In this document: positions 504 through 52,425 of the stretch, piece by piece | Position numbering within the stretch: the first letter of the stretch is position 1 | How the letters are laid out: every line of letters starts with the position of its first letter | Source of the DNA: a virus | Taxonomy: Duplodnaviria > Caudoviricetes | DNA: 64,000 nucleotides | Direction: 5' to 3' (one strand) | Virus record (IMG/VR): IMGVR_UViG_3300021167_000258 | Span: 6,162 to 70,161 of that record | The notes under the pieces: generated by a model | Databases searched by the model: none | Seen by the model: only the letters and a program-made list of their open reading frames with translations | Told to the model about the DNA's origin: nothing | Position numbers and translations under genes: made by a program

Positions 504-749
504 TATCCTAAAAATAGGCTTAGAGTGGGCTAGTTAGTCCAGTGGGGGTGTGGTCGCAAGATTGCACCCCTTTTTCGTGGTTTAAATAGGTGTCCAAAAA
601 TTGGACAGTGTTCCATAATGGTACACATTTTCCTAAAATTTGTGTTTCTATGCGCCAGATACTGTGTCGTGTCGTGTGCCCCTCCCCCCTTCGTAACCGA
701 AACTCGATCCCAAAACTCATCATTGCCCCTAAATTCAATTACTAAATTC

Positions 750-1584: not shown

Positions 1585-1850
1585 CATTCCCTTTGATCGG
1601 GGATTGGGGAACACCAGGGCGAAATGCTCTATAGTGCTCGTAAGTCTACCATGCCTTTGGATTGGTAGCAACCTTAAGCAAACGGCGAAGGTGCACGGCT
1701 TGGATTCTTTGACGTATTGGTAAAAATAGGTAAGCTGTTTAACAATGCACCTATATGTAGGAAGTGAAAAGAAATTTCGGTAAGGTGTTAATGCCTTGCC
1801 TAGCCTATAGAGTTTGATCGCTCTATAGGTATCTAAGGCCGGAAAGGCTA
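1585..1850 (+). ncRNA. Candidate structured non-coding RNA or long leader
   Basis: No ORF. Hairpins: AGGGC/GCTCT, CTACCA/TGGTAG, AGGTGCA/TGCACCT, GGTAAGG/CCTTGCC, CCTATAGAG/CTCTATAGG (1804-1829), GCC-GGAAA-GGC. Confidence 0.4.
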
Positions 1851-1883
1851 TTTTGTTAATCGTTTAATTTAATCCTTATTAGT

Positions 1884-2273
1884 ATGTTTACTCAAGTATC
1901 TTTAGATCTTATCCAAGGTGAAAAGATTTATTCTATCCACGTGAAGTTCGACGAATCAGTTGAAGAGATTAGCACAAAGAAAATAGCGGGTTACTTAACT
2001 GCTAGACTATTCACCAAGTTGAATCTATTTACTAAGAAACCTATCAATATTGGTAGAAAGTGTTTAGTAAAGTTAAGCATTGAAGGCAATGACATGTTTG
2101 CGCAATTCATTGACAGTGAGCAAGATAACGAAATTTTCTCAAAGAAAACAGGACATTGGGCAAGTGATGAAAAGGATTTCGCCCAATGGTTACTTGAGAG
2201 GCTTAACGCTGCTGCAATGCCAAACGGCAATACATTTGAAAAGTGTGTTAGCCCTGAGAAAAATGAAAACTAA
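1884..2273 (+). CDS. Hypothetical early protein
   Basis: 129-aa ORF with ATG and AT-rich leader. Confidence 0.7.
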   Translation: MFTQVSLDLIQGEKIYSIHVKFDESVEEISTKKIAGYLTARLFTKLNLFTKKPINIGRKCLVKLSIEGNDMFAQFIDSEQDNEIFSKKTGHWASDEKDFAQWLLERLNAAAMPNGNTFEKCVSPEKNEN

Positions 2274-2484
2274 CCTACCTAATTCTATTACCTCTATTGA
2301 AGAGGCTAAAGAGTTTTTAAAAAATCTTAAGCATAACGGGGAATTATTTCACCCTGAGGACAACGCCCATGAGATAGCTTGGAGTTGTGCCGCCCCGACT
2401 TACGAGGAATGCGAGAAGCTTAATAAGCTCATGGAGGAGATTTATTCCTTTGGGGATGCATGCAAGCTTATTAGCGAAGTTTAG
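2263..2484 (+). CDS. Hypothetical early protein (73 aa; start moved to ATG2263)
   Basis: MKTNLPNSITSIEEAKEFL...FHPEDNAHEI; ATG overlaps the end of the previous gene. Confidence 0.7.
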   Translation: MKTNLPNSITSIEEAKEFLKNLKHNGELFHPEDNAHEIAWSCAAPTYEECEKLNKLMEEIYSFGDACKLISEV

Positions 2485-2532
2485 TATTGTGGGGGCTTGG
2501 TTGTCCCCACAATAGCCAAAAAGCGAAAGGCT
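2485..2532 (+). other. 12-bp hairpin immediately after a stop codon, followed by AGCC...GAAAGGCT
   Basis: TATTGTGGGG(2485-2494)/CCCCACAATA(2505-2514); no U-tract, so more likely a processing or stabilising hairpin than a terminator. Confidence 0.55.
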
Positions 2533-2565
2533 TTAATCTAATTGTTTAACTTAACAACTACGATC

Positions 2566-2691
2566 ATGAGTAATGAGGTCTACAACTCAGAAACTCAAGA
2601 AACGCTATTCTTTGAGGAGGGGACAAAGATAGTAGCAACATGGATCGCGGTAAAGAAAGCAATTGAATGGATTAACAAACAACCTAAATAG
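2566..2691 (+). CDS. Hypothetical 41-aa protein
   Basis: MSNEVYNSETQETLFFEEGTKIVATWIAVKKAIEWINKQPK*; fills the gap between genes. Confidence 0.6.
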   Translation: MSNEVYNSETQETLFFEEGTKIVATWIAVKKAIEWINKQPK

Positions 2692-2699
2692 CTACACCC

Positions 2700-3002
2700 A
2701 TGAAAGGATATATCTTTTATTTAGAATTTCCCACAGCTCAGGCAAAGAGGAAAGCAACACGGAAAAATCTAGTAGGGCACTCAGGTAACTGTATAGCGGT
2801 TACCTCGGATAATAACGAGCGATGGGAACAATACAAAATGAATAGAGGTTATCCAGCTATAGCAGCAGTGCAAGAAATTCCCAATAGTCCATGTTGCTTT
2901 GACTCGGTTAATTCTAATTACCTTAAAGAAAGGTGCAAGCGCATAAGCGAGGCACAGGCTAGAGAAATACACCCTAATTTGTTTTATAGACTAGAAAACT
3001 AA
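2700..3002 (+). CDS. Hypothetical early protein
   Basis: 100-aa ORF ending CKRISEAQAREIHPNLFYRLEN. Confidence 0.75.
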   Translation: MKGYIFYLEFPTAQAKRKATRKNLVGHSGNCIAVTSDNNERWEQYKMNRGYPAIAAVQEIPNSPCCFDSVNSNYLKERCKRISEAQAREIHPNLFYRLEN

Positions 3003-3013
3003 CAACTAAAGTC

Positions 3014-3310
3014 ATGAGAAAGATTACAGAAAAGTCGGTAAGTTGCTTTATGAAAGCTACTAAGTTTAGCGAAGGCAACACAACGGTAGCCGTAACGGAA
3101 GAGGTTGTAACGTTAAACCTACACGGGAATACCGTCGCATATATGTATCAAAACCCACATAGACTAATTGTAACTACGTGCGGATGGAATGGTCCAACTA
3201 CTAGAGAAAGGTTGAATGGCTTACCCGGCGTTAGCACATACCGCCGAAAAGGCCAATTGTATCTAAATGGGGAGAAGTGGGACGGTAGTAAAATTGAAGT
3301 AAAAGATTAA
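3014..3310 (+). CDS. Hypothetical early protein
   Basis: 98-aa ORF, MRKIT...LHGNTVA...GWNGPTTRERLNGL. Confidence 0.75.
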   Translation: MRKITEKSVSCFMKATKFSEGNTTVAVTEEVVTLNLHGNTVAYMYQNPHRLIVTTCGWNGPTTRERLNGLPGVSTYRRKGQLYLNGEKWDGSKIEVKD

Positions 3311-3353
3311 CTGATGATGGCTTTATTAGCCGAAACCCCGCAAGGGGTATTAA
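3307..3353 (+). ncRNA. Type I hammerhead ribozyme
   Basis: Stem I UUAA(3307-10)/UUAA(3350-53); CUGAUGA 3311-17; extra U3318; stem II GGCU/AGCC; GAAA 3332-35; stem III CCCC-GCAA-GGGG plus A-U; GUA cleavage triplet 3347-49. Confidence 0.8.
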
Positions 3354-3368
3354 CCAACAATTAAGAAT

Positions 3369-3506
3369 ATGAAACTAATAGCGCAAAATAAAGGCTTTTG
3401 TATATACTTTAGCCCTGTTACACAAAGCTATTCTGTATATAAAGATGGCAGGTTCTTAATAGGTGACAAATATAAATTTTCTCAAGTATCAATTTATCTA
3501 ACATAA
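3369..3506 (+). CDS. Hypothetical 45-aa protein downstream of the hammerhead
   Basis: MKLIAQNKGFCIYFSPVTQSYSVYKDGRFLIGDKYKFSQVSIYLT*; TAATG coupling to the next gene. Confidence 0.65.
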   Translation: MKLIAQNKGFCIYFSPVTQSYSVYKDGRFLIGDKYKFSQVSIYLT

Positions 3507-3757
3507 TGGCAATGAAAACATTATTCTTAGTAACCGCAGACTCCCAACCAATAGGGGTGGCGGAGCTACCAGCCTATGAGGATGGGCCAGCCTTATCTAA
3601 AAAGGTAACGCAAATACTGGAGAACCACTTCGACGTAGCTGTAGAGATACCCGACCTGGATATGCACGCGCTAAAGATGCAGAACTTCTTTGCGTTTGCG
3701 TTGGAGGTGGATGGGGTTGATACGGTAGTAAAGGTAGAGGAAATTTATTTTGCTTAA
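3506..3757 (+). CDS. Hypothetical protein
   Basis: 83-aa ORF, translationally coupled. Confidence 0.7.
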   Translation: MAMKTLFLVTADSQPIGVAELPAYEDGPALSKKVTQILENHFDVAVEIPDLDMHALKMQNFFAFALEVDGVDTVVKVEEIYFA

Positions 3758-3768
3758 CACGTACGACT

Positions 3769-4359
3769 ATGCAAGAAATTAAGGTAAACGTTTACTCGCT
3801 GAATGAGCTAGACGAAAGGGCTAGGAATAAAGCCCACAATGATTATTTGGAAGGGTTATATATTGATGCTTACGAGTTTGAAAATACTATTGAAGCATTT
3901 GAAAATGTATTCCCTATTAAGCGAGTAGGGGACTTTTTCAACGTGCCAGGGTATATTGAATTGAAGGGGGCTAGGCTTATGGCATACATTTGGAACAACT
4001 ACAAATCTGCTCTATTCAAAGGTAAGTACTACCCGGTTAAGAACAACGAGAAAGTTACCCATCGTAGGGTAAAGGCAAAGCAGTTTAGGAACGGGTGGTT
4101 TAATGCTTACTACTCCGCCATAACCATGGAAAACTCATGCACCCTTACTGGAGTGTGCTACGATAATACCATGCTTCAACCCGTTTACGATGCGTTGGAG
4201 GGGAAGTTCAACGGAACCTTTGATGATATGCTCAGGGCGTGTTACAGAGAAATAGACGCGGCGTGGGAGCAGGAATGTGAGTATAGGCAAAGCTACGCTG
4301 CATTCGAGGAAGACAGTGAGGGTAAATTATTCTTTAAAGATGGGAGAGTATATGAATAA
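3769..4359 (+). CDS. Early phage protein of unknown function
   Basis: 196 aa, VYSLNELDERARNKA...CTLTGVCYD...acidic C-terminus. Confidence 0.75.
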   Translation: MQEIKVNVYSLNELDERARNKAHNDYLEGLYIDAYEFENTIEAFENVFPIKRVGDFFNVPGYIELKGARLMAYIWNNYKSALFKGKYYPVKNNEKVTHRRVKAKQFRNGWFNAYYSAITMENSCTLTGVCYDNTMLQPVYDALEGKFNGTFDDMLRACYREIDAAWEQECEYRQSYAAFEEDSEGKLFFKDGRVYE

Positions 4360-4561
4360 CATAACTATAGCCCAGTTTGATTTTGCTCAGGTAGGATACG
4401 GGCACGTAAGGGTAACCTACACCTCCCCCGTAACGGGGAAGCGATGGGAGAAGGTCACCAACAACATGAAATTGATCGACAACACTAAGAATGCAGACCT
4501 ACCAAAGAGGAAGGACTTGCTTAGGCTAATGAAGGAGGTAAAACATGGAACTATACACTAA
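4352..4561 (+). CDS. Hypothetical protein (start moved to ATG4352)
   Basis: MNNITIAQFDFAQVGYGHVRVTYTSPVTGKRW; overlaps the upstream stop. Confidence 0.7.
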   Translation: MNNITIAQFDFAQVGYGHVRVTYTSPVTGKRWEKVTNNMKLIDNTKNADLPKRKDLLRLMKEVKHGTIH

Positions 4562-4832
4562 GGAACCGGACAAGATTGTTAGGGTTACCATAATTTCAGG
4601 CAAGGCCAGGATAAACTTTGCCTACATTCACGCCACAGCGGATGAGGTTATAGCCAAGGCTAAGACTATCATCAAGGATAATATTGCCGTGGATATATTC
4701 TCCAAGACTAGTAGAATTACAGTGTCTGTTAGGGAGTGCGAAGGAGGTAAGAATGGGAAAACAAAGCAATTTAGTTTCCCTTGCACAGATATAAATAAGG
4801 TTCACAATTTATTGCTAAAAAATTTAAAGTGA
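4545..4832 (+). CDS. Hypothetical protein
   Basis: 95-aa ORF in a tightly packed operon. Confidence 0.7.
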   Translation: MELYTKEPDKIVRVTIISGKARINFAYIHATADEVIAKAKTIIKDNIAVDIFSKTSRITVSVRECEGGKNGKTKQFSFPCTDINKVHNLLLKNLK

Positions 4833-5059
4833 TGGGATATAAAGTAACGTGGGAGATAGACTTCGAGGATGAAGTTAACTCCCCAGAAGAGGCAGCAAAG
4901 CTAGCCCTAGACTACATTGTAAACGGCACCGCTAGGGTGTTCAACGTAGAGACGCTGGATACTGGTGGGAAGAGAATGGTTGTGCCTACGGTGACCATTG
5001 ATGTTGATGCGTTGGAAGAGGAAGAGTGTGAATCTACAGAGGAGGACGTGTCATGTTAG
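4829..5059 (+). CDS. Hypothetical acidic protein
   Basis: 76 aa, GTGA overlap. Confidence 0.65.
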   Translation: MMGYKVTWEIDFEDEVNSPEEAAKLALDYIVNGTARVFNVETLDTGGKRMVVPTVTIDVDALEEEECESTEEDVSC

Positions 5060-5292
5060 TAACGGTAAGACAGAGGGTAATTATTATTGCTGAGTTTCAG
5101 CTAAATGTTCCTACAGGGGTATCCCCAGAATCATTTGTAGAGGATATATTATCAAATGATCCAGCGTGTAACAACCAACCTGAGGAGTTTGATGTAGAAT
5201 ATGATTACAACACAGAGCAAGTAATCAGCACAACCATAGAGGACGAGGATGGAAACGTGCTGGGTAAGTGGGTTGCTAATACCGGAAAGTGA
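5053..5292 (+). CDS. Hypothetical acidic protein
   Basis: 79 aa, overlapping start and stop. Confidence 0.65.
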   Translation: MLVTVRQRVIIIAEFQLNVPTGVSPESFVEDILSNDPACNNQPEEFDVEYDYNTEQVISTTIEDEDGNVLGKWVANTGK

Positions 5293-5570
5293 TGAAAGTA
5301 GTGAGAATGATACAGGTAAACGACGTAGTAGTGGTAATGACTCAGCGTAGCCGTCACCACTACTGCTGCTACTTTAAGGCCGATGCTCTCCCAACTGAGG
5401 ATGAAGCGGTGCAGAAAGTATGCGAGCTCGAAGCTAAGCACGGGCGTAAGGGATTTGATTCTTACATACGCCCAACACCAATGAGTAAGAGGGATGCAGT
5501 GAAGAAGTTCAACAATTTAGTTAAGATAATACCTAACATTGAGTTCTATGACACGCCGACAAAGAGATAG
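5289..5570 (+). CDS. Hypothetical protein
   Basis: 93 aa, GTGA overlap. Confidence 0.65.
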   Translation: MMKVVRMIQVNDVVVVMTQRSRHHYCCYFKADALPTEDEAVQKVCELEAKHGRKGFDSYIRPTPMSKRDAVKKFNNLVKIIPNIEFYDTPTKR

Positions 5571-5787
5571 ACAGCTAGAGTTTTTATCCTTGTGCTTCTC
5601 CCTGACTATGCAAGGGTTTCATTTTACTAAGGACAATAATGGGTTCTTAGAAATGGATTGGGTAGAGGCTAAGAGATTAAATAGCCCATACACCAGATTA
5701 CCTTACGTTAACTACCAAGGTATAGTAAGGGTTAATTCCACTAAAGTTAAGGTATATTTTAAACTTTGGAGCGATGTTACAGGCTGA
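5548..5787 (+). CDS. Hypothetical protein
   Basis: ORF-track 5539..5787; first ATG at 5548. Confidence 0.6.
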   Translation: MTRRQRDRQLEFLSLCFSLTMQGFHFTKDNNGFLEMDWVEAKRLNSPYTRLPYVNYQGIVRVNSTKVKVYFKLWSDVTG

Positions 5788-6097
5788 ATTTTGTGACTTT
5801 GTTGAGGCAATGGGGTTCAGGGGAACCTGTGCTACAACCTTGGAGTCGCTATATGGGGCGGGCGTAATCTGCCACTACCATCAGAACACGGTTGATGTTA
5901 TTCACACCGTTCCGCTTTTATACATGAACGGGGAGCCTAAGCTTGGGTTTGTATCCATTCGACAGGATGTGCTGAGAAGGATAGCCAAGAACTTTGGCGA
6001 AGAAGGGTTACCACACGATTGGCTACCGGCTAGGCTGGAGCAAATAGAGTTGGGAGAAGTTGAATATTCACAAGACGAAATACTGGAGATGTTATGA
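5774..6097 (+). CDS. Hypothetical protein
   Basis: 107 aa, packed operon. Confidence 0.65.
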   Translation: MLQAEFCDFVEAMGFRGTCATTLESLYGAGVICHYHQNTVDVIHTVPLLYMNGEPKLGFVSIRQDVLRRIAKNFGEEGLPHDWLPARLEQIELGEVEYSQDEILEML

Positions 6098-38067: not shown

Positions 38068-41000
38068 TTATTTTTTATTTTCCATGTCCTGCATGCGCTT
38101 CTCTGCTTCCTTCATTTTCTCCTCTGCCCGTTTCTCGGCTTCGCGCATGCGCTCCTCTATCTCATCCATCTTCTCCTTCATCTCCTCATCGGAGGGTAGA
38201 CCTAGGGAGTTCAGTTCATCCTCAGATAGAACTTTGCCGGTTCCCTTGGCAGCGGCTTTAGTAAGCTTCTTCATGTCTTGAATGAATGGGGCTCCGGTAG
38301 CCATACCAAATACGTTATACCCCGCGTTTATCAAGTGGCTTGCATCTGATTCAGATACATCTCCATTGTATAGAGAAGGACCGTAAGTAAATACATCAGC
38401 AAACACTTCGGCCGGCACAGATATACCTCCGAACAACGGGGTGTAGGATTTTATTGCCGTTGGAGAATCAAACAACCGTGTAGGAGCAGACATCACCAGT
38501 TTATCCTTGTAAGGATCGTAAGGCTTGCCCTGCACATTCTCTGTTATTTCCTTATTGCCCAACTCTATCCCCAACCCTATCAAGGATTTCACCGGGCCAG
38601 CCCACCTACCTAGAGGAATGCTTATGGCCGTGGCCAAGGCTTGCCTAGCGTGGTAGTCTGAGGTGGTCATATCTATATACTTACTATCATCTTCCTCTCC
38701 TAGAGCAGATTGATACAAGTTATAAATATACGTTCCTAAAATATTATAAACATGGTTTCTAGCCACGATCATACTCATTTGCCTAGCCCCATCCCCTGCA
38801 CTTTCTAGCGTGCCTTTTCCGTATAGGCTCTTGGCTGCGTTGGAAAAGTTAGCCGCGTCGTTGAACGGATAGGAGCGCATGAAACTCCAGAACGCTTTAC
38901 CCATGGTGGTCATGTAGTTGGTAGATCTTGATCTTAAAATATCTGCCACATCGTAAGTAGATGAGGCGTTGAACAGCACATTGATATTACCATCGGCTTT
39001 ATCGCTGGCGGCTTGTATTTCCTTTTGGAATTTAAACCGGTAGTTGGGATCATTCATAAACTTATCCCCATCAAACTTCTCCCCTGTTTGCTTGGAGAAC
39101 TCTCGAGAGAAACTACCTACCCATACAGGTCTGGTAATAACCGAGTCAGATAACCGAATCAACGAGTCTGCTAAATCCTTACCCTTACCCACTACTCCTC
39201 CTACAGCCTCCCCTACCTTCTCTGAGGCTTTACCGGCTAAGGTAGATTTCAAAGTCCCTTCTGGAGAGATCATGCGCTTTGTGAATGCATTCTCCCTATC
39301 AAGGTTGCTGCTACCAAATCGTATTTGATGGGTTCCTCCAGTGAACTGCATGATACTTCTGAGAATACCCTCGCCCTCATACATTTTACCATACTCTTTT
39401 AGCATGGATATTCCCTCATGGAACTCCGCTGGGTAGAACATAGCACCGGCAACGTTAGAAGGCAACTCCTTTAATATTCTAGGGGCTGAGGCTAATGTGA
39501 ACCTGTAGGTGTTGGAGAGTATTTCCTTAACCATTTCATCGGCTATAGTCTCCTTTGTGCGTTGGGCCACGTATTCTCCTTGAATATTATTCTTAACGTA
39601 AGAAGTCAAGGAGTTAATAAACGACGCGTCCTTACTATTTTTCAACCCATCCTTTACCCTACCAAACGTCCCGAACACTTCTTGTATTGCTGGGGTCATA
39701 TGATAATCAGTCAAAGCATCCCTATAAGCACCTAAGAAATTTTTGGTTGGGGAGAATCTTATTGTGGGGGTTCCTACTCTTTCCTTTGCTGAACCTGCGG
39801 CAAAACTAACGTGGGACTTGCCACTCTGCAGCATGTCTACTAGATCAGCAAACTCCTTATCTGGAGTAGTTTTAATTCCATCCGCTACTATTCTAGCGTA
39901 GCTGTTTATTCCCTTAAACGCACCACCCCTATACATAGTCTCTGAGAACCTAAGAATTGGAAGTATATCCTCCGTAGAGGCCCTATCCATTTCCTTTACC
40001 AAGGCTTTCTCTCCAGGAGTCAACACCTCTGCCTCCATCTTAGCCAAGTCTATATTGCCTTGGGCATCCCTTGGTAAGAACTCGTATAAGGCGCGTAGGC
40101 GTTCCTTTTCCTTTGGGCTGTATGATCCTTCGTCTAGGTTCTTGATATAGTCTGGGAGATGGGTAGGTAGGTCAGGGTTCGCCCTATCCTCCCTAGTTCT
40201 AAGATACATTTCCAGTATAGCCTCGGAGTCAAATAGGGATCGTCCTCCCAAAGCAGTAGTCCCAACTACCTTGTCAAAGCCGGTAGTTTCCCCTAGATGT
40301 TTACTCCTAAGCTCGCTAATCTTTTTTGCGTAAGGGTCAAATGTTACCCTTACTTTAGAATCTGCGTTGGCAATTTTCTTATAGCTGGAATCGTATACTA
40401 CAGAGGTACCGTCAATGCCATGTATACCATCTATTAAGTATTTCTGAACCGGTCTGAATGACTTGGCCCACTCTTCTACCGATTTTTCCTTAAACCCTTT
40501 GGTAACTTCCGGAGCAGTTTCCCTTAATGCCTCTGCTAATTTACGATCCGTAGGAGTCCATACCTCTCTAGCAATTCCCAACTCTCCCCCCATTTTAGCC
40601 GCAGCCTCTCCAACCTTAGCCTTAAGCACAAAGTCCTTATAAACTTTGGGGCTAATCCAGTTGTTCTTGTTCACGGCCTCAACTACTCTGGAGAGCATGT
40701 TCAGTTCTTTTGGGCTGAACTTCTTTACCATCTCTGGAGATAACAATTGTTTAAACTCTCGGAGTAGGTCTGCTTCCTTGGCATCAAATACCCTATCTGC
40801 AGTTTTATCCGTAGCATTACCAACTACCTTATCTGGGTTGATTTCTTTTATAGCCAAGGTTAGTTCTGGCTCCATCATATCCGCAATTAACCTCTCTGCT
40901 ACTTTAGCATCGGCTATATCGGATACGCTTTCCTCTACCTGCTTCCAGCGCTTGTTGGCACTAACATCCAATAGCTTTTCTACTACCGGGCGTATCTCTT

Positions 41001-44000
41001 CGTATAGATTGGTTAGCCTCTCCCTAGATACATCGGGAACTGCTGAGGTAGCCAGTTCCTTCATGGCAAGGTTGTAACGGCTCACGGTTTCTGCGGGGAG
41101 TAGGTCATATGGTGCGTCTACTAGCTGCCTTACTATCGGTGATAGCGATCCAAACTTTTTACCAGATTTAAGGGACTTAGTTACCTTAGCAATGTTCTCC
41201 TCGATACTTGCTACTTGGTTAGCAAATGTTTTCTTGTTTAAAACTTTAGTCAAGTAGGTCTTGAATGAATCTGCTTGCTCTACAGTCTCAACCCTATTTA
41301 ATTTTTTAAGCAGGGCCGCGCTCAACTCTGGGGCAGCGTTGTCTATGGTAGACTTGTGCTCATCAATAAACCCGGCAATATCTATCTTAGCCTGTTTAAC
41401 TTCTTGTAATCTTTCCTTATTCGCGTCCCCTTCCTTACGGGCAAACGCTACTTCCCAACGCTCTTTTAGCTTCTGCTCCTTTAACTTTTCTCCTAGGGCT
41501 ACCTTTTCTGCTTCTGATTTAGCGTTCTTAATGTCCCTCAAAAGATTCTGTTCTGCTGCCTTGAATGATTCTATCCTTTCCTGTTCGGCTTTACCTGCTT
41601 TGAATGCGGCCTTTTCTACTCTGGACTTTCCCTTAAAATCTGCCCACTGCATGGCTATAAGCTTATCGCTTTTACCTGCCTTTGCAGCAATGTCTATGCT
41701 CTTCTGTATATCCATACCCTCTGTGGCCATCACCTCTTTCAAGGTGTAAGAGGTCCCTTCTAACTTAGTTTCTAGTAAGGACTCAACATCGGACATTTTA
41801 ATATCGGTAGCGAAGTATTCCTTCATCTCCCTAGACAGCTCCTTGAATAGAATCTCGGAAGATTTTACCCCTTGCCTTACGTAAGAACCCGCCAGCTTAC
41901 CCATTAGCTCAATACGCTCTTGGGTAAGTCCAGGGACTATGGTAGCGCTGAGGGATTTATCCGCAGTTCTGTAGGACTCTATAAGGTTTTGGCGATAGCT
42001 GCGCTCCCTCTCAGCCACCATTTTTATTTGGCGCTTGGCTCCTAATGGGGCAGCAGCCACTTGCTCGGTGGCAAAAGATTCCTTTACTACTTCAACAGGT
42101 TTTCCGGTTCCGGTTGGCCCTGCAACTTTCTCTTCTTGAACTCCTTTAGGAGCAGGAACTTCGCCATTTGGAGCTTTTGCTTCTTCGACTCTTTTGGTTG
42201 TCTCATGGTATAGTAGTGTTAATTCTTTATCGTCCATGGCTGAGATTTCCCTCTCGGTTTTTCCCAACACCTTTTCTGCCACTGCATCCGGAACTGCATC
42301 AAGTTCATTCTTTATGCGCTTGATCTTAGCCATTACGGCCTCCTCGGTGAGATACATGATAGGCATCTCGTTAGGGTCCTTACTATCCCCACGCTGGTAT
42401 CGTTGCTCAACGGCACGAAGTATACTCTCGCTTGCTGGGGTTAGTTCGGCTACGCCCATTCGGTAATCTCGAATGTTTGCGGAGGCAGCGTTAAACTCCT
42501 TCTGAGGCATATTCAAAAAATCAGACGCAATAAAGTTTGACTCTGCAGGGTCGTAGGCTTCCATGAAATCCAACGCCAGCTCTCTGGAATCTGTGGCTCT
42601 CAGCTGCTCTAATGGAATATCTAAAACCTCTTGGGCTTCCTTCTCGTATTTCTCTTTTCTTGGAACATCCTTTTCTGTAGTAGATAGCGACTCGTAGAAC
42701 TCTTGTAGTTTAGTTCTATAGGCTAAAGCAGAGTCTACATTCCCTCCAAAGAACTTACCTACACCCTTGTCTATGGCAGCATCTACAAACCTAAGTTCCG
42801 CGGATACATCCCCTACTGCCTTATCTCTTGCTTGTTGAGATAGGGGTAACCCCTCTCTTGATCTGGATATAGCCACAACAGACGAAGGGGATAATACCAC
42901 ATCCTCTGGGCTGACCTTACCGGCAAATTCCCCTGATAAAAATGAGTAAGATTGGGAAGTATGCGCGTTTACCCTATCCTCAGCAGCGCGTAGCGTAGCG
43001 TTATCATTTCTTACTACTAAATCACCTACAGCGGAAGGAGGGTTTTCATCTATGGCTTTTAGTAAATCTTCCTTAGAAGAGTATCGCTTTCCTCCATAGT
43101 AGTAGTAAGGCTCCCTGAATAGGTTAGCCACTTGCTTTTCCTTGGAAGCAATCTCCCCTTTTATAGCATCAGCCCTCAACTTAGAAGTCTCTGTTCCTGC
43201 CCCTTCTAGCTCTACCTGCTGAGTTTTTAAATCCTCAATTTCTTGTAATCCTTTTCTGGCCTCGGCTGATACAGGATCGTAGGTATCTAGTAATGAGTTA
43301 ATCCTACTCACCACTTCCTTCTCACCTATCTTCTGCTCTCTAGCAATAGCCTTTACTGCCTCTGGATTTCTTAGGGCATTGTTCAATTGATCTGCTACCA
43401 TGATTAACTCAGAAGCAGTTCTCTTTCTCCCCATGGACGCTTCTTGGCTTCCACCGGTTAGTTCAGCCATGCGGCTATCCCTAATCTCCATAACTGCCAC
43501 AGAGGTGGGGTCGGTTTTAATGGCATTGGCCTTATCCATGAACTGCTCACTTCCCTCTAGGAAACGCTTATTGGCACTCACCCTAGCCGCGCTAATATCT
43601 AGTGCAGCCATAGACTTCATATCCTTGGCCCCAAACGCTATAGCCATTCCCATAGCGTTATATAAATTTTCTTTTCTTACTTCCCCTTCGGTGATTAAAT
43701 CTTTGATAGCAGCCTCTGCCCCGAATACTGCCGTAGAGGTTGCCGTGCCGGTCACCCCAGCGGTAACACCAGCAACCTTATTCCAGCCCTTCGCCTCGGT
43801 TGAGAGTTTACCTCCGGCTCTTTCCAACTGCTTGGCAGCAATCTTAGACGATACCATATGCCCAGGTTGTCCCAAACTCTCCCACCACCACGCATCAACA
43901 GTAGCCCCTAAGTAAGTCTTAGCAGCCTCCGAAAAGTCTGCCCCTTCCTCAGCGGCTTTACCTGTTTCTAAGGTAGCATGAACCAATGGGAACTTGCCAA

Positions 44001-45081
44001 ACTCTAAATTTGTTAAGTAGGAGGCAGTATGCTTTAAAGGGTTTTTAGTCCCTTGGAATATCTTAGCGTAAGTAGGTATCCTAATGGAAGATCCACCCAT
44101 GGTCAAAGCAGTGAGGGCTAACTCCCCACCTACGTAGGATAACGATTTTATTACACTGGAAATAGGATCATCTGGTAAGTCGGGAACCCCTGCCACTACT
44201 ACATCTACCTCTTGTAAAGCTTTATTTGAAGCAAATAAAGGATCTCCTAAATTAGTGGCATACTCTATATACTTAGGAATATCGTCGACATATTGTTCTA
44301 ATAACTTTACCTGCTCTGTGTCCCCACTTCGCTTGGCTCGTTCTATGTTTAATTCTAGCCCATATCGGATTATAGGCTCCATCGTAATGTCCCTAAGATC
44401 CCTTTTAGTGTTATCCAGTATTTTACCAGCCTCCACGAATACCCCTGCTGCCGGTTTTAATGCGCTGGCTACATACTGTATTCCCTTTTCCGCTACCATG
44501 CCGGTAACGGTTTTACCCAACCCTTCTGAAATCCATGCATCTATCTGCTGAACCATGGTAGGATCAGCCGTAACTGTTCCGGTTTTTGGTAAATTAACTG
44601 GAAGTGGTAAATCATCATCGGTAAATACCGACTTCTGCTCCTTACCTACCAATGGGGATTTTATTCCCTCTAGCGCGTCCCTGCGTATAACCATCTCTGG
44701 GGTATCGTTTGGATACCTAAACTCTCCGGGAGTATACTCTAACTTAGGGACCGCTGGTATACTGGTATCAATAGGTAATTCTTCCCCTATCTTTGGTGCT
44801 TGCATATTCCTACCAATAGCACCTAAAGGTGAGCCCATAGCGTTCATACTTTGTGTCATGCTAGATACAACTGGAGGCTGGTTTGGTAGTTGTATATTCG
44901 GAGAAATATCTTTTAGGAATGTTGGTAAGTCTGGAACCTCATACCCATCATTTACTAGGGTAGCGTGTAACTTCTCTACCTTGGAGGGATCAGACATATC
45001 TTTTTCAAACGAGGTAGTATCTGGAACCTCATACCCATCATTTACTAGGGTAGCGTGTAACTTCTCTAAATTGTTGGGCAT
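38068..45081 (-). CDS. Large internal virion/DNA ejection protein
   Basis: 2337 aa, largely helical; third of three genes after the muzzle; no intact DxDxD RNA polymerase motif. Confidence 0.65.
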   Translation of the reverse strand: MPNNLEKLHATLVNDGYEVPDTTSFEKDMSDPSKVEKLHATLVNDGYEVPDLPTFLKDISPNIQLPNQPPVVSSMTQSMNAMGSPLGAIGRNMQAPKIGEELPIDTSIPAVPKLEYTPGEFRYPNDTPEMVIRRDALEGIKSPLVGKEQKSVFTDDDLPLPVNLPKTGTVTADPTMVQQIDAWISEGLGKTVTGMVAEKGIQYVASALKPAAGVFVEAGKILDNTKRDLRDITMEPIIRYGLELNIERAKRSGDTEQVKLLEQYVDDIPKYIEYATNLGDPLFASNKALQEVDVVVAGVPDLPDDPISSVIKSLSYVGGELALTALTMGGSSIRIPTYAKIFQGTKNPLKHTASYLTNLEFGKFPLVHATLETGKAAEEGADFSEAAKTYLGATVDAWWWESLGQPGHMVSSKIAAKQLERAGGKLSTEAKGWNKVAGVTAGVTGTATSTAVFGAEAAIKDLITEGEVRKENLYNAMGMAIAFGAKDMKSMAALDISAARVSANKRFLEGSEQFMDKANAIKTDPTSVAVMEIRDSRMAELTGGSQEASMGRKRTASELIMVADQLNNALRNPEAVKAIAREQKIGEKEVVSRINSLLDTYDPVSAEARKGLQEIEDLKTQQVELEGAGTETSKLRADAIKGEIASKEKQVANLFREPYYYYGGKRYSSKEDLLKAIDENPPSAVGDLVVRNDNATLRAAEDRVNAHTSQSYSFLSGEFAGKVSPEDVVLSPSSVVAISRSREGLPLSQQARDKAVGDVSAELRFVDAAIDKGVGKFFGGNVDSALAYRTKLQEFYESLSTTEKDVPRKEKYEKEAQEVLDIPLEQLRATDSRELALDFMEAYDPAESNFIASDFLNMPQKEFNAASANIRDYRMGVAELTPASESILRAVEQRYQRGDSKDPNEMPIMYLTEEAVMAKIKRIKNELDAVPDAVAEKVLGKTEREISAMDDKELTLLYHETTKRVEEAKAPNGEVPAPKGVQEEKVAGPTGTGKPVEVVKESFATEQVAAAPLGAKRQIKMVAERERSYRQNLIESYRTADKSLSATIVPGLTQERIELMGKLAGSYVRQGVKSSEILFKELSREMKEYFATDIKMSDVESLLETKLEGTSYTLKEVMATEGMDIQKSIDIAAKAGKSDKLIAMQWADFKGKSRVEKAAFKAGKAEQERIESFKAAEQNLLRDIKNAKSEAEKVALGEKLKEQKLKERWEVAFARKEGDANKERLQEVKQAKIDIAGFIDEHKSTIDNAAPELSAALLKKLNRVETVEQADSFKTYLTKVLNKKTFANQVASIEENIAKVTKSLKSGKKFGSLSPIVRQLVDAPYDLLPAETVSRYNLAMKELATSAVPDVSRERLTNLYEEIRPVVEKLLDVSANKRWKQVEESVSDIADAKVAERLIADMMEPELTLAIKEINPDKVVGNATDKTADRVFDAKEADLLREFKQLLSPEMVKKFSPKELNMLSRVVEAVNKNNWISPKVYKDFVLKAKVGEAAAKMGGELGIAREVWTPTDRKLAEALRETAPEVTKGFKEKSVEEWAKSFRPVQKYLIDGIHGIDGTSVVYDSSYKKIANADSKVRVTFDPYAKKISELRSKHLGETTGFDKVVGTTALGGRSLFDSEAILEMYLRTREDRANPDLPTHLPDYIKNLDEGSYSPKEKERLRALYEFLPRDAQGNIDLAKMEAEVLTPGEKALVKEMDRASTEDILPILRFSETMYRGGAFKGINSYARIVADGIKTTPDKEFADLVDMLQSGKSHVSFAAGSAKERVGTPTIRFSPTKNFLGAYRDALTDYHMTPAIQEVFGTFGRVKDGLKNSKDASFINSLTSYVKNNIQGEYVAQRTKETIADEMVKEILSNTYRFTLASAPRILKELPSNVAGAMFYPAEFHEGISMLKEYGKMYEGEGILRSIMQFTGGTHQIRFGSSNLDRENAFTKRMISPEGTLKSTLAGKASEKVGEAVGGVVGKGKDLADSLIRLSDSVITRPVWVGSFSREFSKQTGEKFDGDKFMNDPNYRFKFQKEIQAASDKADGNINVLFNASSTYDVADILRSRSTNYMTTMGKAFWSFMRSYPFNDAANFSNAAKSLYGKGTLESAGDGARQMSMIVARNHVYNILGTYIYNLYQSALGEEDDSKYIDMTTSDYHARQALATAISIPLGRWAGPVKSLIGLGIELGNKEITENVQGKPYDPYKDKLVMSAPTRLFDSPTAIKSYTPLFGGISVPAEVFADVFTYGPSLYNGDVSESDASHLINAGYNVFGMATGAPFIQDMKKLTKAAAKGTGKVLSEDELNSLGLPSDEEMKEKMDEIEERMREAEKRAEEKMKEAEKRMQDMENKK
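44930..45068 (-). repeat. 49-nt perfect direct repeat (90-nt period) at the start of the ejection protein gene
   Basis: 44930-44978 = 45020-45068; encodes EKLHATLVNDGYEVPD twice. Confidence 0.9.
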
Positions 45082-48015: not shown

Positions 48016-51000
48016 CTATTTTATCTTCGCATAACCAATTGTTAGCATAGTAATTTTAAACTTTTCTATTAGTGTCTTTAGCACTTTAGCCTCTAAGTAG
48101 TTACCTTGAACTCGGTATCTATTACCTCCTAACTTTCTAGGGATGTATTGCTCCCATGATTTTCCATAAAGATTAAGGTCTGCATTATACACAACAGCCG
48201 TATCCGTATCCCCTTCCTCAGAAGCAAACCTAAGTTCAGTAGGATCTCCACCGCTTATTCTAAACCACGCAAACTCCTTATCCACATCCCCCTCAGGGTT
48301 GGCTATAAAAGTAGCCTCGGTTTGAATAGCACTACCGTTTAAGGTTACCCCATTCTCCATAGAGAAGGATAGCCCTTGCCTAAATCCATGGCTTGTTTGG
48401 GTCTTATCCTTAGCCCCTACCATGTGGTCGAACACATAGTCTCGTAGTCCCTGTGAAGTTTTTGCCCACAGGCTATAGGATAACACCACCTTGGTAGAAC
48501 CATTATCCCCAGCCATTACCACCTCATCAAAATCAGAGGAGTAGTAAGCAAACATACCCCGCATAGGAGATGTATATTTATTCATTATAGTGGTAAGAAT
48601 ATTCATTCCCCCAAAGGATATATCCTCGGCAGCACCTACTCCGGATACCAATCTCAACCTACCTGTCTTGTCTAAGAATACAAATCCCATTGGGGTTTCA
48701 CAAGCTAACTCTCTATGCACTGGTAGCATTCCTACACCTTTAACCCACATCTCCTGTTGTATAAATCCTATATCAGACTTTATTAAAGCCAGTTGACTTG
48801 TATCCAAGTTCTGTAGCATTATTGCCCCTGATACTAGAAAACATATTCCCTCCTCAGCGACCACTACTACAACGTTACCACCTGGGCTGCTTATGGACCC
48901 TATCCTAGCCCCTGCACCATATCCCCCTTTTAGGTCATATACTGAACTAGCCAAGAATGTCCTTAGGTTAGGGCTGTCCTGAACGCTAGGGTTACGCTTA
49001 CTGGAATAAATAACTCTATTTGGGAAATCAGTTACCCTAGTAAATCCTACAGTGGGAAGGGATGTAATGCTTGGTTGCTTTACTTTAGCGTAATCCAAAT
49101 TATGGCTATGCACAAAATGGAAGCCTCCCCTGTCCCAGTTTAACGGCTCATCTCCATAATCGAGGTAGTATGAGTAGGACATGCCATTATTAGTTAAAAA
49201 TTCCTCCGGTTTTGCTACATCATATTTACCTACAGCATACCTTAATCTAGGAACGTAGTTCCTGTTTGGGAAGCTGTTGCTATATATTAATGGCACATTT
49301 ACCCTAGTCACCGAAGGGTAAACCATAATCCACTGAAATATTCTATTTAAGGTATACCTAAAACAGCTCAATCCTAGAGTCGCATCATCCTTATCAAATA
49401 TCTGCTTAGTAACCATAGAAAATACGTTATTTTCTATATTGGTCCACCTATCTTTGGCCGATTGCCCGAAGTATGAAGAGTAAGGAAATGAGGTATTGAA
49501 TCTCATACATACCCTCCTTAGTTGGTTACTGCCTGTAGCATCAGCAGACGTATACCCAGCGCTAGCATCCTTCCAATATTTACCGTCAATGGCAGCAAAG
49601 CTAGCTGTGCCTACATACCCCTCTCCCCCAAATACCCGCAAAGGCAAACGGGAATCATACCTAACCTCTACTGCATCCCCTACATTTGGTATAGTGAATG
49701 GCCTATACTTTACATCTGTGTCTGCTATAAATTTTATACTATTCCCGGAAGAAAAGTATAATCCCCATACCACCTTATACCCATCAAACGCCCCTGTCTC
49801 TGCTAGGAACATGGTATTAAGAATAGTGGATATATCCAATAAGGACATCTTAGTAGCATCTTTCCACGCCTTACCGTTAATATAAATATACCTACCCGGT
49901 ATAGTAGTATCCAAGTAAGAAATAGTGCCTATAATACAATCCTCTGCTCTTTCATCCACTAAAGGTATTGTTTGATCTTCGCCGGTCCCGTAACCAATTA
50001 TGGAGGATAACTTTTGGAAATGCCCGAAATCTCTATACTGGCGTATATTATTTCCGGCTGTTCCTACCCCTTCTAGCAGTAAGTTAGCTAAGTAAAAAGG
50101 CTCGTGAAAATTCTTAGTTGCTGTAGCCTCTGTATTTAAGACTCCAGGATTGGCGGTTGTTTTATATACTGGATTATCCAACGTGATCTCTACTACTACA
50201 CCTCTACCATGCATAGATGAATCTAGCCCAAACGTAGATGGGTAAGGATTCAACGTGGCATCTACTACTTTAAACTTCATCGCCTCCTTAGAAGAGGATA
50301 CATCCTTAGTTTGGTAATCAGTATTTCTATACTTGGAGAAGCCAATATACCCACTGTGTCCTACATTACCTGTGGTAAAGGTAGGATTTATGGTGCCATC
50401 CTCTTTGTTAATGTTGGTATAGGTAGCCATTTGAACAAACCCTTTACCGGCATCCACACCACCGTCACCAGACTCTGCTGCCTGATTGTTGGCAGAATAC
50501 ACCTCAGAAGCAAATCCTAAGCTACTTACTAATTGTAGGGAGTATCTAGTAGGGTTGTTTACTATGTCTGCCAAAACTCCTGATATTCCTGCAGCCGGAT
50601 CTACATCAGGGGAGTAAAACCACACCTTATTAGCGTATTTAGACGGAACCCCATTAATTAAATCTGATGGGGGCTGAAAGGCATACATCACCATCCCCTG
50701 TGCTACTACCCTCATATAGTCCTTAGTCTTAACTATAGAGAACGCTTTTACCCATGGGGGTAAGGATGAAGTGTCTATGCTTGGTATAGCCATACCTAAG
50801 CTGTGCTGAGTCTGGCTGAATAGTTTAGGATTATACTCTGCCCTATCTGCTGGAAGAGTCAATAGTAAAGTAGCATCAGTAGGAGCTACCCACCCATTTA
50901 TACGATTACTTAACCCATCTAACTTGTTAGCCTTCTTTGTAGGAGTTAATGGGTTATATGGAACTTCCTCTGCACAGTAACTAATCATATTAGATTGAGG

Positions 51001-52425
51001 GGTAGTTCCTTTAGCCAATCCATCGTTGGCAAACATTTCAAACGTATCATCAAGAGTAGCACTACCATCACCGGACATTACTGTAGCGTTGTAGGTATTT
51101 ACAGCTGATGAGAAATCTTTACTCCCTGGGTAAGAAGTCATAGATTCCCTGTTGTTGGGATTTCTATACGTGGCTTCAAGTAAAAATGGTTCTGTTTTAT
51201 TCCCAGCCCCATCATAAAATACTATGGCAACCCCACTCTCCTCTCCGGGAATCTCCGACTTATAGTAAGCTTGGTTAAAGATGGACTTATGCCCTATCCT
51301 ACCCAATGATTGTAAGCATGGGATTATTTTCTTACCTCCCACAGTGCCAATTGTGAAGGATAGGCTTAGGTCGGTTGTCTTGTATTTTATTCCATAGTAT
51401 AAAAGTCTACCCTCATAAAATAAAGTTTGGCTTGCACCAGAAATACTTGCTTGTCTGTCCGATATTTGAACTGCATCAGTCAACCAAATTTGATTGGAGG
51501 TGTCTACAAAAGATACTGTAGTTAGGTTGTCTAGGTTAACCGCTACCCCGTTGGCATCAAAAGCTACTTTAACATATTCAAGTTGTGGTTGGTAATCTCT
51601 AGGGGTTCCAGTAAAATTACCTAACCTAACCACCTCCATATAAGAGAACCCTACCGCATTGGCCCGTATTCTTAGTCTTACCCCGTAGCTACTAACATCT
51701 CCGGGGGCTCCTCCAATAGTTTTAAATCCCTTCCTTACCCCACCATTCCCGTCGGAACTATACGCCCCTGCACTTATCTCATCCCACTGCATAGGCACAT
51801 TTATGTATGGGGTAAATGGTCCAGTGACAGTTTTATTTCCGTCGGCATCTACGAACCTAACTGCGTAGGCATAGGACCCTACTTTTAATCCTGCTCCCCC
51901 ACTATCCACCAACCCCTCAAACATTGGTATGGTTACAGACTGTTCAGTAACAGGTCCGAAAGAATCGGCATTATACCCAGAAAAATACTTATCCGTTGCA
52001 ACGTTATCCAGCATATCCTGCACATCCAACAACTGTGGAAGGTTGTCTATGTGGCAAAAGCTAAGAAAAATCTTAGTGTCCTTATACAGATCCACGGATA
52101 ACTTATTTCCAGATATGGGAATATTAGCTGAGCTAGCCACGGCTGTCCCGTTTACTGTGATAGTTTTTAGGGTAGGGGATGCATACCATAAGGCTATAAC
52201 ATACCCAAACTTATAGATAGCCCCCACACAAATATACCCTGAGTTGGATAATGAATGCGTTTGCTGCTCTCCCATAATAGACACCAAATCCCCCTTATAC
52301 AAGGGGTCGTAGCGCATATTTTTTAGCCCTCTTACCATGCCCGGCTGCATAGCCATTGGGGTAATGTCCACATTTTGGGATATAGGCTGTAGGCTGACCT
52401 GCTGAGTATGCTTAGTATTTCTCAT
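48016..52425 (-). CDS. Tail muzzle/nozzle (stabilisation) protein
   Basis: 1469 aa, beta-rich; RGLKNMR N-terminus, GNYLEAKV C-terminus; crAss-like position. Confidence 0.7.
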   Translation of the reverse strand: MRNTKHTQQVSLQPISQNVDITPMAMQPGMVRGLKNMRYDPLYKGDLVSIMGEQQTHSLSNSGYICVGAIYKFGYVIALWYASPTLKTITVNGTAVASSANIPISGNKLSVDLYKDTKIFLSFCHIDNLPQLLDVQDMLDNVATDKYFSGYNADSFGPVTEQSVTIPMFEGLVDSGGAGLKVGSYAYAVRFVDADGNKTVTGPFTPYINVPMQWDEISAGAYSSDGNGGVRKGFKTIGGAPGDVSSYGVRLRIRANAVGFSYMEVVRLGNFTGTPRDYQPQLEYVKVAFDANGVAVNLDNLTTVSFVDTSNQIWLTDAVQISDRQASISGASQTLFYEGRLLYYGIKYKTTDLSLSFTIGTVGGKKIIPCLQSLGRIGHKSIFNQAYYKSEIPGEESGVAIVFYDGAGNKTEPFLLEATYRNPNNRESMTSYPGSKDFSSAVNTYNATVMSGDGSATLDDTFEMFANDGLAKGTTPQSNMISYCAEEVPYNPLTPTKKANKLDGLSNRINGWVAPTDATLLLTLPADRAEYNPKLFSQTQHSLGMAIPSIDTSSLPPWVKAFSIVKTKDYMRVVAQGMVMYAFQPPSDLINGVPSKYANKVWFYSPDVDPAAGISGVLADIVNNPTRYSLQLVSSLGFASEVYSANNQAAESGDGGVDAGKGFVQMATYTNINKEDGTINPTFTTGNVGHSGYIGFSKYRNTDYQTKDVSSSKEAMKFKVVDATLNPYPSTFGLDSSMHGRGVVVEITLDNPVYKTTANPGVLNTEATATKNFHEPFYLANLLLEGVGTAGNNIRQYRDFGHFQKLSSIIGYGTGEDQTIPLVDERAEDCIIGTISYLDTTIPGRYIYINGKAWKDATKMSLLDISTILNTMFLAETGAFDGYKVVWGLYFSSGNSIKFIADTDVKYRPFTIPNVGDAVEVRYDSRLPLRVFGGEGYVGTASFAAIDGKYWKDASAGYTSADATGSNQLRRVCMRFNTSFPYSSYFGQSAKDRWTNIENNVFSMVTKQIFDKDDATLGLSCFRYTLNRIFQWIMVYPSVTRVNVPLIYSNSFPNRNYVPRLRYAVGKYDVAKPEEFLTNNGMSYSYYLDYGDEPLNWDRGGFHFVHSHNLDYAKVKQPSITSLPTVGFTRVTDFPNRVIYSSKRNPSVQDSPNLRTFLASSVYDLKGGYGAGARIGSISSPGGNVVVVVAEEGICFLVSGAIMLQNLDTSQLALIKSDIGFIQQEMWVKGVGMLPVHRELACETPMGFVFLDKTGRLRLVSGVGAAEDISFGGMNILTTIMNKYTSPMRGMFAYYSSDFDEVVMAGDNGSTKVVLSYSLWAKTSQGLRDYVFDHMVGAKDKTQTSHGFRQGLSFSMENGVTLNGSAIQTEATFIANPEGDVDKEFAWFRISGGDPTELRFASEEGDTDTAVVYNADLNLYGKSWEQYIPRKLGGNRYRVQGNYLEAKVLKTLIEKFKITMLTIGYAKIK

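Follow-up and report, generated by a model that had tools for sequence, protein, structure and literature searches.

A type I hammerhead ribozyme motif between two early genes of an uncultured virus and its family in phage intergenic regions

The motif and its locus

We studied a 64-kb stretch of DNA (hereafter called the window) that makes up most of a 70-kb record of an uncultured virus, whose DNA polymerase is less than 28% identical to that of any phage in the searched collection. A run of small genes precedes the helicase and DNA polymerase genes, and it is the strand of this run, i.e., the strand of the early genes, that carries an element with the parts of a type I hammerhead ribozyme at 3304-3357 (+). 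The element lies at the junction of two ORFs; the coordinates of all features are listed in Table 1. With regard to the neighbours, the protein encoded upstream (98 aa) matches the Pfam family PF23790 (Kyano_Gp96) with 42.3 bits as well as PHROG 554, where it is not assigned a function. For the ORF downstream (45 aa), no Pfam or PHROG match was found.

Table 1. Features of the hammerhead locus (positions are those of the window; hammerhead numbering is used for nucleotide names).
Feature	Position	Strand	Remark
Upstream ORF, 98 aa	3014..3310	+	TAA stop at 3308-3310, within the 5' strand of stem I
Conserved unpaired A, position -7 relative to C3, directly 5' of stem I	3304	+	candidate tertiary-contact nucleotide
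Stem I, 5' strand, GAUUAA	3305..3310	+	partner is 3350-3355
Catalytic core C3-A9, CUGAUGA	3311..3317	+	columns of alignment A1 invariant except N7
Extra U between A9 and G10.1	3318	+	insert relative to model R1
Stem II, GGCU/AGCC, with 5-nt loop UUAUU	3319..3331	+	formed in the MFE fold
Core G12-A13-A14 (GAA)	3332..3334	+	invariant in alignment A1
Stem III, A15.1-U16.1 pair and CCCC/GGGG, with GNRA loop GCAA	3335..3348	+	formed in the MFE fold
Predicted cleavage site, H17 = A3349, scissile bond 3349/3350, triplet GUA	3349..3350	+	from hammerhead numbering
Stem I, 3' strand, UUAACC	3350..3355	+	sequence read and match of model R1
Conserved unpaired AA directly 3' of stem I	3356..3357	+	family conservation
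Leader of 19 nt, predicted 5'-OH after cleavage	3350..3368	+	sequence read
Downstream ORF, 45 aa, ATG at 3369	3369..3506	+	ORF list

The hammerhead core, i.e., C3-U4-G5-A6-N7-G8-A9 together with G12-A13-A14, is complete in the window copy, with one extra U after A9. The required closing pairs G3319-C3331 (G10.1-C11.1) and A3335-U3348 (A15.1-U16.1) are both present, H17 is not a G, and the helices comprise 4 pairs (stem II), 5 pairs (stem III) and 5/6 pairs (stem I). The letters therefore agree with the original prediction, which had claimed a complete type I hammerhead at this place. We searched both strands of the window with a descriptor that asked for the core followed by at most one inserted nucleotide, for stems I and II, for GAA, for a stem III closed by A...U and for an H17 other than G. 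The motif is the sole type I hammerhead that this search reports in the 64-kb window, and the same descriptor yields 0 motifs in 400 dinucleotide-preserving shuffles of the window.

Further details of the prediction hold as well. The putative cleavage after A3349 follows from the hammerhead numbering, and the GUA triplet, which had been described as cleavable, is natural and active, namely in ELVd constructs (PMC1636495). The next ATG lies 19 nt past the predicted cut, in agreement with the leader length given before, and the UAA that had been placed inside stem I as the stop of the upstream gene is indeed where the ORF ends.

Some observations on the surroundings are reported for completeness. 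Upstream of the small-gene block, a strong hairpin resembling an intrinsic terminator is located at 544-571 (+), with 12 pairs, a GCAA loop and a U-run. At the site of the element itself, an intrinsic terminator was rejected, given that no U-tract follows the hairpins and that the site is absent from the terminator scan. The window also holds two very large ORFs without Pfam match, i.e., 38068-45081 (-) with 2337 aa and 48016-52425 (-) with 1469 aa; the former has no PHROG match either.

The family in unrelated phages and the membership of the window copy

A pattern derived from the window's own stems hit one other contig (L042), whose copy lacks the extra U and thus has a canonical core, forms all 6 bp of stem I and is preceded by an ORF with its TAA stop at the same place; L042 has no protein in common with the window. 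Using looser patterns, we found the canonical form in at least 120 viral contigs, many of which carry 2-7 copies that are a few hundred bases apart. An 18-mer covering the window's stem II, loop II and the GAAAC thereafter retrieved 25 further unique hammerheads from metagenome contigs (the stem II-chosen sample), and these contigs show no likeness to the window outside the ribozyme. Finally, a dedicated scan for the form with the extra U reported 93 viral contigs with 77 unique hammerheads. Of 109 sites retrieved with the 5' part of the extra-U pattern alone, 106 feature all three helices.

The family is sharply defined. Stem I comprises exactly 6 bp, i.e., no further pair follows in 166/176 unique copies. 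The position directly 5' of it (-7) is an A in 94% of these 176 copies, in 25/25 copies of the stem II-chosen sample and in 73/77 copies of the extra-U subtype, and of the two bases that follow stem I on its 3' side, the first is an A in 90% and the second in 80% of the 176. The modal stem II has 4 bp and a 5-nt loop that starts and ends in U, with GGCU/AGCC being its commonest sequence, and stem III is free in length and sequence across the family and covaries freely. H17 is a C in about 85% and an A in about 15% of the family (A in 29/195 canonical-form and 14/77 extra-U copies).

The helices are supported by covariation in the homologues, next to a nearly invariant core (Table 1). In alignment A1, changes on both sides are observed for 13/16 pairs, and the pairing of 98.6% drops to 30-37% when the partners are slid. 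Since the members of A1 were chosen for pairing, the sample chosen by stem II (and GAAAC) alone provides the fairer covariation test. Here, we find 17 different stem I sequences, each of which is complementary at no fewer than 5/6 positions. A hammerhead-like sequence with the window's stem II, a GUA-UUAACC 3' side and a disrupted 5' core was observed at about 8880-8960 of contig L292 (CUGUGAUGA); this copy may be a decayed member of the family.

For the covariance model R1, we used 61 members of the family and left out the window copy. R1 matches the window copy at full length (model positions 1-68; 3297-3363) with 59.3 bits (E 2.9e-12), which is within the range of 35-80 bits scored by family members, and the second-best match in the window has 14.2 bits. 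The window copy also carries the signature of the subfamily, i.e., A3304, A3356-A3357, GGCU-UUAUU-AGCC and a six-position stem I, the latter with one A.C mismatch. With regard to placement, we asked whether the copy is on the coding strand, directly follows the stop of an ORF and precedes the following start codon by about 15-45 nt. The window copy has its stop at -3 relative to C3, is located on the coding strand and is followed by an ATG 19 nt after the cut. We are nearly certain that the window motif truly belongs to the phage intergenic type I hammerhead family.

R1 reports 162 copies of the subfamily in 99 loci, with a maximum of 7 copies per locus. No second copy was found with R1 in the window or in the preceding 6.4 kb of the genome. 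That is, unlike the clustered copies, the single copy of this genome does not bracket a gene.

A run of the Rfam hammerhead models had been proposed as a check. It was carried out with Rfam 15, and the expected match is missing: the locus is not reported at gathering score, nor at E values up to 10 when searching 3250-3420. Likewise, no match at gathering score is reported for ten loci where canonical members of the family are found, and for these the best weak Rfam scores are 18.5-19.9 bits to RF03152 (RAGATH-1; gathering threshold 56.3). Because the canonical relatives fail as well, the silence of Rfam reflects its models and not the window copy. As a side observation, Rfam 15 misses at gathering score a very abundant phage type I subfamily, present in the viral contigs L161-L271 and L339-L417 and in the metagenome contigs L273-L338.

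Relatives of the locus

Close relatives of the virus were found neither in the phage collection by DNA nor in the viral contigs via the 196-aa neighbour protein, and a hammerhead follows none of the 40 distant homologues of the 98-aa upstream protein. Metagenome contigs of wastewater, aquatic and freshwater origin resemble parts of 1800-5800 at 80-99% in a mosaic fashion. In 4/4 public runs, the bin that contains the ribozyme (3274-3407) is covered, and the bin 3140-3273, i.e., most of the upstream gene, is uncovered. The relatives are mosaic over 2250-3510, where they lack both the gene at 3014-3310 and the 45-aa ORF (3369-3506) or have something else in their place; for the latter, the joints observed in runs X3 and X2 (3359>3506 and 3374>3505) indicate that the ORF is apparently replaced or absent. 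The relatives thus cover the ribozyme while its flanks differ, i.e., the ribozyme is kept and its neighbours change.

The relatives' copies are not identical to that of the window. Two contigs break at 3319, and their unaligned ends show the canonical GGUUAA and CUGAUGA with no extra U. In one contig, GAAAC is followed by another stem III, which is fully complementary, and then by GUC, and one 14-kb contig seems to hold two ribozyme copies where the window has one. We did not adopt the idea that the ribozymes act as recombination junctions of gene cassettes: based on 67 related locus pairs, homology does not break more frequently across the ribozyme than at control positions (26 vs. 26% and 43 vs. 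36%).

Extra U, stem I and upstream stop codon

The extra nucleotide after A9 had been claimed to be tolerated, and the family confirms this on a broad basis. One extra base is present at this position in 12/25 unique hammerheads of the stem II-chosen sample (U in 10), and the 77 unique viral copies of the extra-U scan all show 6/6 stem I pairs. The lower insertion count of 4/176 for the canonical form is an artefact, since the respective pattern demanded a G right after A9. Given that the extra U is frequent in both corrective samples, it is no defect; as far as its distribution in these sequences tells, it is a common, conserved and widespread phage subtype. In the 2001 CChMVd study by De la Pena and Flores, an extra U at the same core position reportedly raised the rate. 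Among near-identical loci (L278, L310, L294, L320), the extra U is polymorphic, i.e., CUGAAGA-U, CUGAUGA and CUGAAGA are all observed. The insertion furthermore goes with a purine at N7 (7/12 with vs. 2/13 without insertion, in the small stem II-chosen sample).

For stem I, the original prediction needs correction. Instead of four pairs, the family register gives six positions, namely G3305-C3355, the A3306.C3354 mismatch and then four A-U pairs, i.e., five paired positions and one mismatch. The distal extension of stem I by a helix of AAUUG (3292-3296) and CAAUU (3358-3362) was rejected, because the flanks of the family pair no better than shuffled flanks (longest flank helix 5.30 bp vs. 5.33 bp). 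Copies with a mismatched stem I are rare, with 3/176, 2/25 and 0/77 in the three family samples, which suggests selection against such mismatches. We considered whether the window copy is a chimera of a GAUUAA-type 5' half and a UUAACC-type 3' half, and did not adopt this, since one G-to-A transition is an equally good explanation of the mismatch.

Taken together, the analysis shows the motif, its place in the family as well as the conservation and covariation of the latter; self-cleavage of the window copy and its biological purpose are inferred. We think it likely that the copy is active and cleaves the early transcript at 3349/3350. Once the RNA is transcribed, stems II and III would fold and the weak six-position stem I would close round the core, upon which self-cleavage between A3349 and U3350 would most likely take place. 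The upstream message would then carry the folded ribozyme at its end, with a 2',3'-cyclic phosphate, and the downstream message would start with a 5'-OH and the short leader. By analogy to the clustered phage hammerheads, the likely effect would be a split of the polycistronic early transcript, such that the neighbouring genes could differ in stability or translation.

Due to the rare A.C mismatch in stem I, the window copy may be slower at cleaving than its relatives. A stronger version, which we regard as unlikely, states that an active ancestor was damaged, i.e., that the G-to-A change at 3306 weakened stem I to an extent that cleavage at cellular Mg2+ is poor or does not take place, leaving a neutral relic or merely a stabilising pair of hairpins after the gene. 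This would fit the nearest-neighbour energies, according to which stem I closure costs +3.1 kcal/mol in the window copy compared to a family median of -3.7 kcal/mol (weakest 2% of the family). It would also fit the MFE structures: the hammerhead fold is the MFE in 138/176 members and not in the window, where stems II and III alone are formed. Mismatches of stem I are found in about 2% of the family, and a related contig shows the canonical GGUUAA at the same locus. However, nearest-neighbour energies omit tertiary contacts, and all catalytic nucleotides as well as the A at -7 and the AA are intact; a single transition is the sole defect. Moreover, an A.C opposition can form a wobble pair.

Next to the strength of stem I, its overlap with the upstream stop codon has to be considered. 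In nearly all family members, the end of the upstream ORF falls into the range from about -22 to +12 (counted from C3), with a clustering from -15 to +12. Within a sample of 185 copies, which is biased to TAA by the search patterns, the stop is found at -8 to -10 (just 5' of stem I) in 53 copies, at -3 (the TAA in stem I) in 52, at +1 (the UGA inside CUGAUGA) in 29 (29/185) and at +11 (inside stem II) in 12. The stem II-chosen sample shows stops at -9 (5 copies), -11 (5), -3 (4) and +1 (3); a TAA in stem I is present in 12/25 of its copies and is used as stop in 4/12. The ribozyme itself carries stops in more than one frame, i.e., TAA in stem I and UGA in the core. On the 3' side, the following start codon is located 26 nt past the cut in the median of the family, compared to the 19 nt of the window. 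Because the registers vary across the family, the stop overlap is a packing trait with no fixed wiring. With these registers at hand, the overlap of stop and stem I in the window copy is one of several ways of packing rather than a conserved design.

The overlap can also be read as a switch. A ribosome that terminates at UAA 3308-3310 would cover the 5' strand of stem I and the core, such that cleavage would take place only after, or without, translation of the upstream gene, which would provide a timing switch. The stop codon within stem I points in this direction, and so does the family: in nearly all copies, the upstream ORF ends on the 5' strand of the ribozyme or within about 20 nt of it, and a terminating ribosome would cover stem I in most copies. 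Still, none of the observations calls for such gating, and we consider it rather improbable for the window copy. The registers vary (-3, +1, -8 to -11, +11), the TAA of stem I is the actual stop in just 4 of the 12 stem II-chosen copies having it, and tight packing of phage genes alone predicts the same proximity. In addition, no competing fold was seen, and irreversible cleavage needs but one brief ribosome-free moment. We give an equally low chance to the family-wide form of this reading, in which ribosome occupancy at the upstream stop would set the time of folding, such that the family members would be translation-sensing cutters and not constitutive ones. If it were true, the weak mismatched stem I would make the window copy especially dependent on ribosome clearance.

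Finally, the locus might hold no ribozyme at all, but a pair of common hairpins between genes, serving as terminator or RNA stabiliser, that look like a hammerhead by chance. The lack of an Rfam hammerhead match and the two hairpins of the MFE fold might point to this reading. It is left with a negligible probability and is effectively refuted by the shuffles (0/400), by the R1 match (E 2.9e-12) and by the stem II-chosen sample; hundreds of homologous copies with covarying stems in unrelated contigs speak against it as well.

Self-cleavage at 3349/3350 remains the reading that we prefer for the window copy. On its own, this copy adds little, and the results at family level are more useful. They provide (i) a clearly delimited and highly abundant subfamily of phage type I hammerheads below current Rfam thresholds, (ii) the extra U after A9 as a normal and widespread core variant and (iii) the proximity of the upstream stop, which falls on the 5' strand of the ribozyme or no more than about 20 nt away from it and sometimes is the UGA of CUGAUGA. 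A family that compact and abundant is good material for studying the purpose of bacterial and phage hammerheads, which is still open (PMC6765202).

With regard to known systems, RAGATH-1 (RF03152) is the best weak Rfam match of the canonical members, covering stem I, core and stem III. Its upstream hairpin and its reduced stem II are absent from the phage family, and it does not match the window. The type I hammerheads of Schistosoma and newt satellites (RF00163, clan CL00010) share with the window copy the open stem I and the core, and their stem I likewise has about 6 bp, with unpaired nucleotides behind it for which a contact to loop II is conceivable. They differ in that the window copy (at E values up to 10) and the canonical members have no Rfam type I match, that the phage copies show no second stem I segment past the unpaired As, and that the latter are part of phage mRNA instead of satellite repeats.

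CChMVd(+) has one extra nucleotide at the same core position. It is A10, located between A9 and G10.1, and it is tolerated (De la Pena and Flores 2001, via PMC1636495). In the window, the extra base is a U, and the subtype is widespread in phages.

The closest comparison is given by Perreault et al. (2011), who described hammerheads between the genes of phages and prophages. Frequently, a locus holds several of them, placed around single genes, and they cleave in vitro and in E. coli (PMC3088659). The authors proposed that long transcripts are cut into gene-length mRNAs (PMC3088659), and later reviews repeat the link to phages and call the function still open (PMC6155905, PMC6765202). The window copy resembles these hammerheads in its canonical core, its location on the coding strand and its position between small, poorly conserved phage genes. 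It differs by its single copy in the genome, the extra U and the A.C mismatch in stem I. The combination of a 6-bp stem I, the A at -7, the AA tail and a 5-nt U...U loop II was not found stated in the phage-hammerhead literature (Perreault et al. 2011 and the reviews). Intergenic phage hammerheads have thus been known since 2011, and the window copy is a further member, special in its single copy, its extra U and its mismatch.
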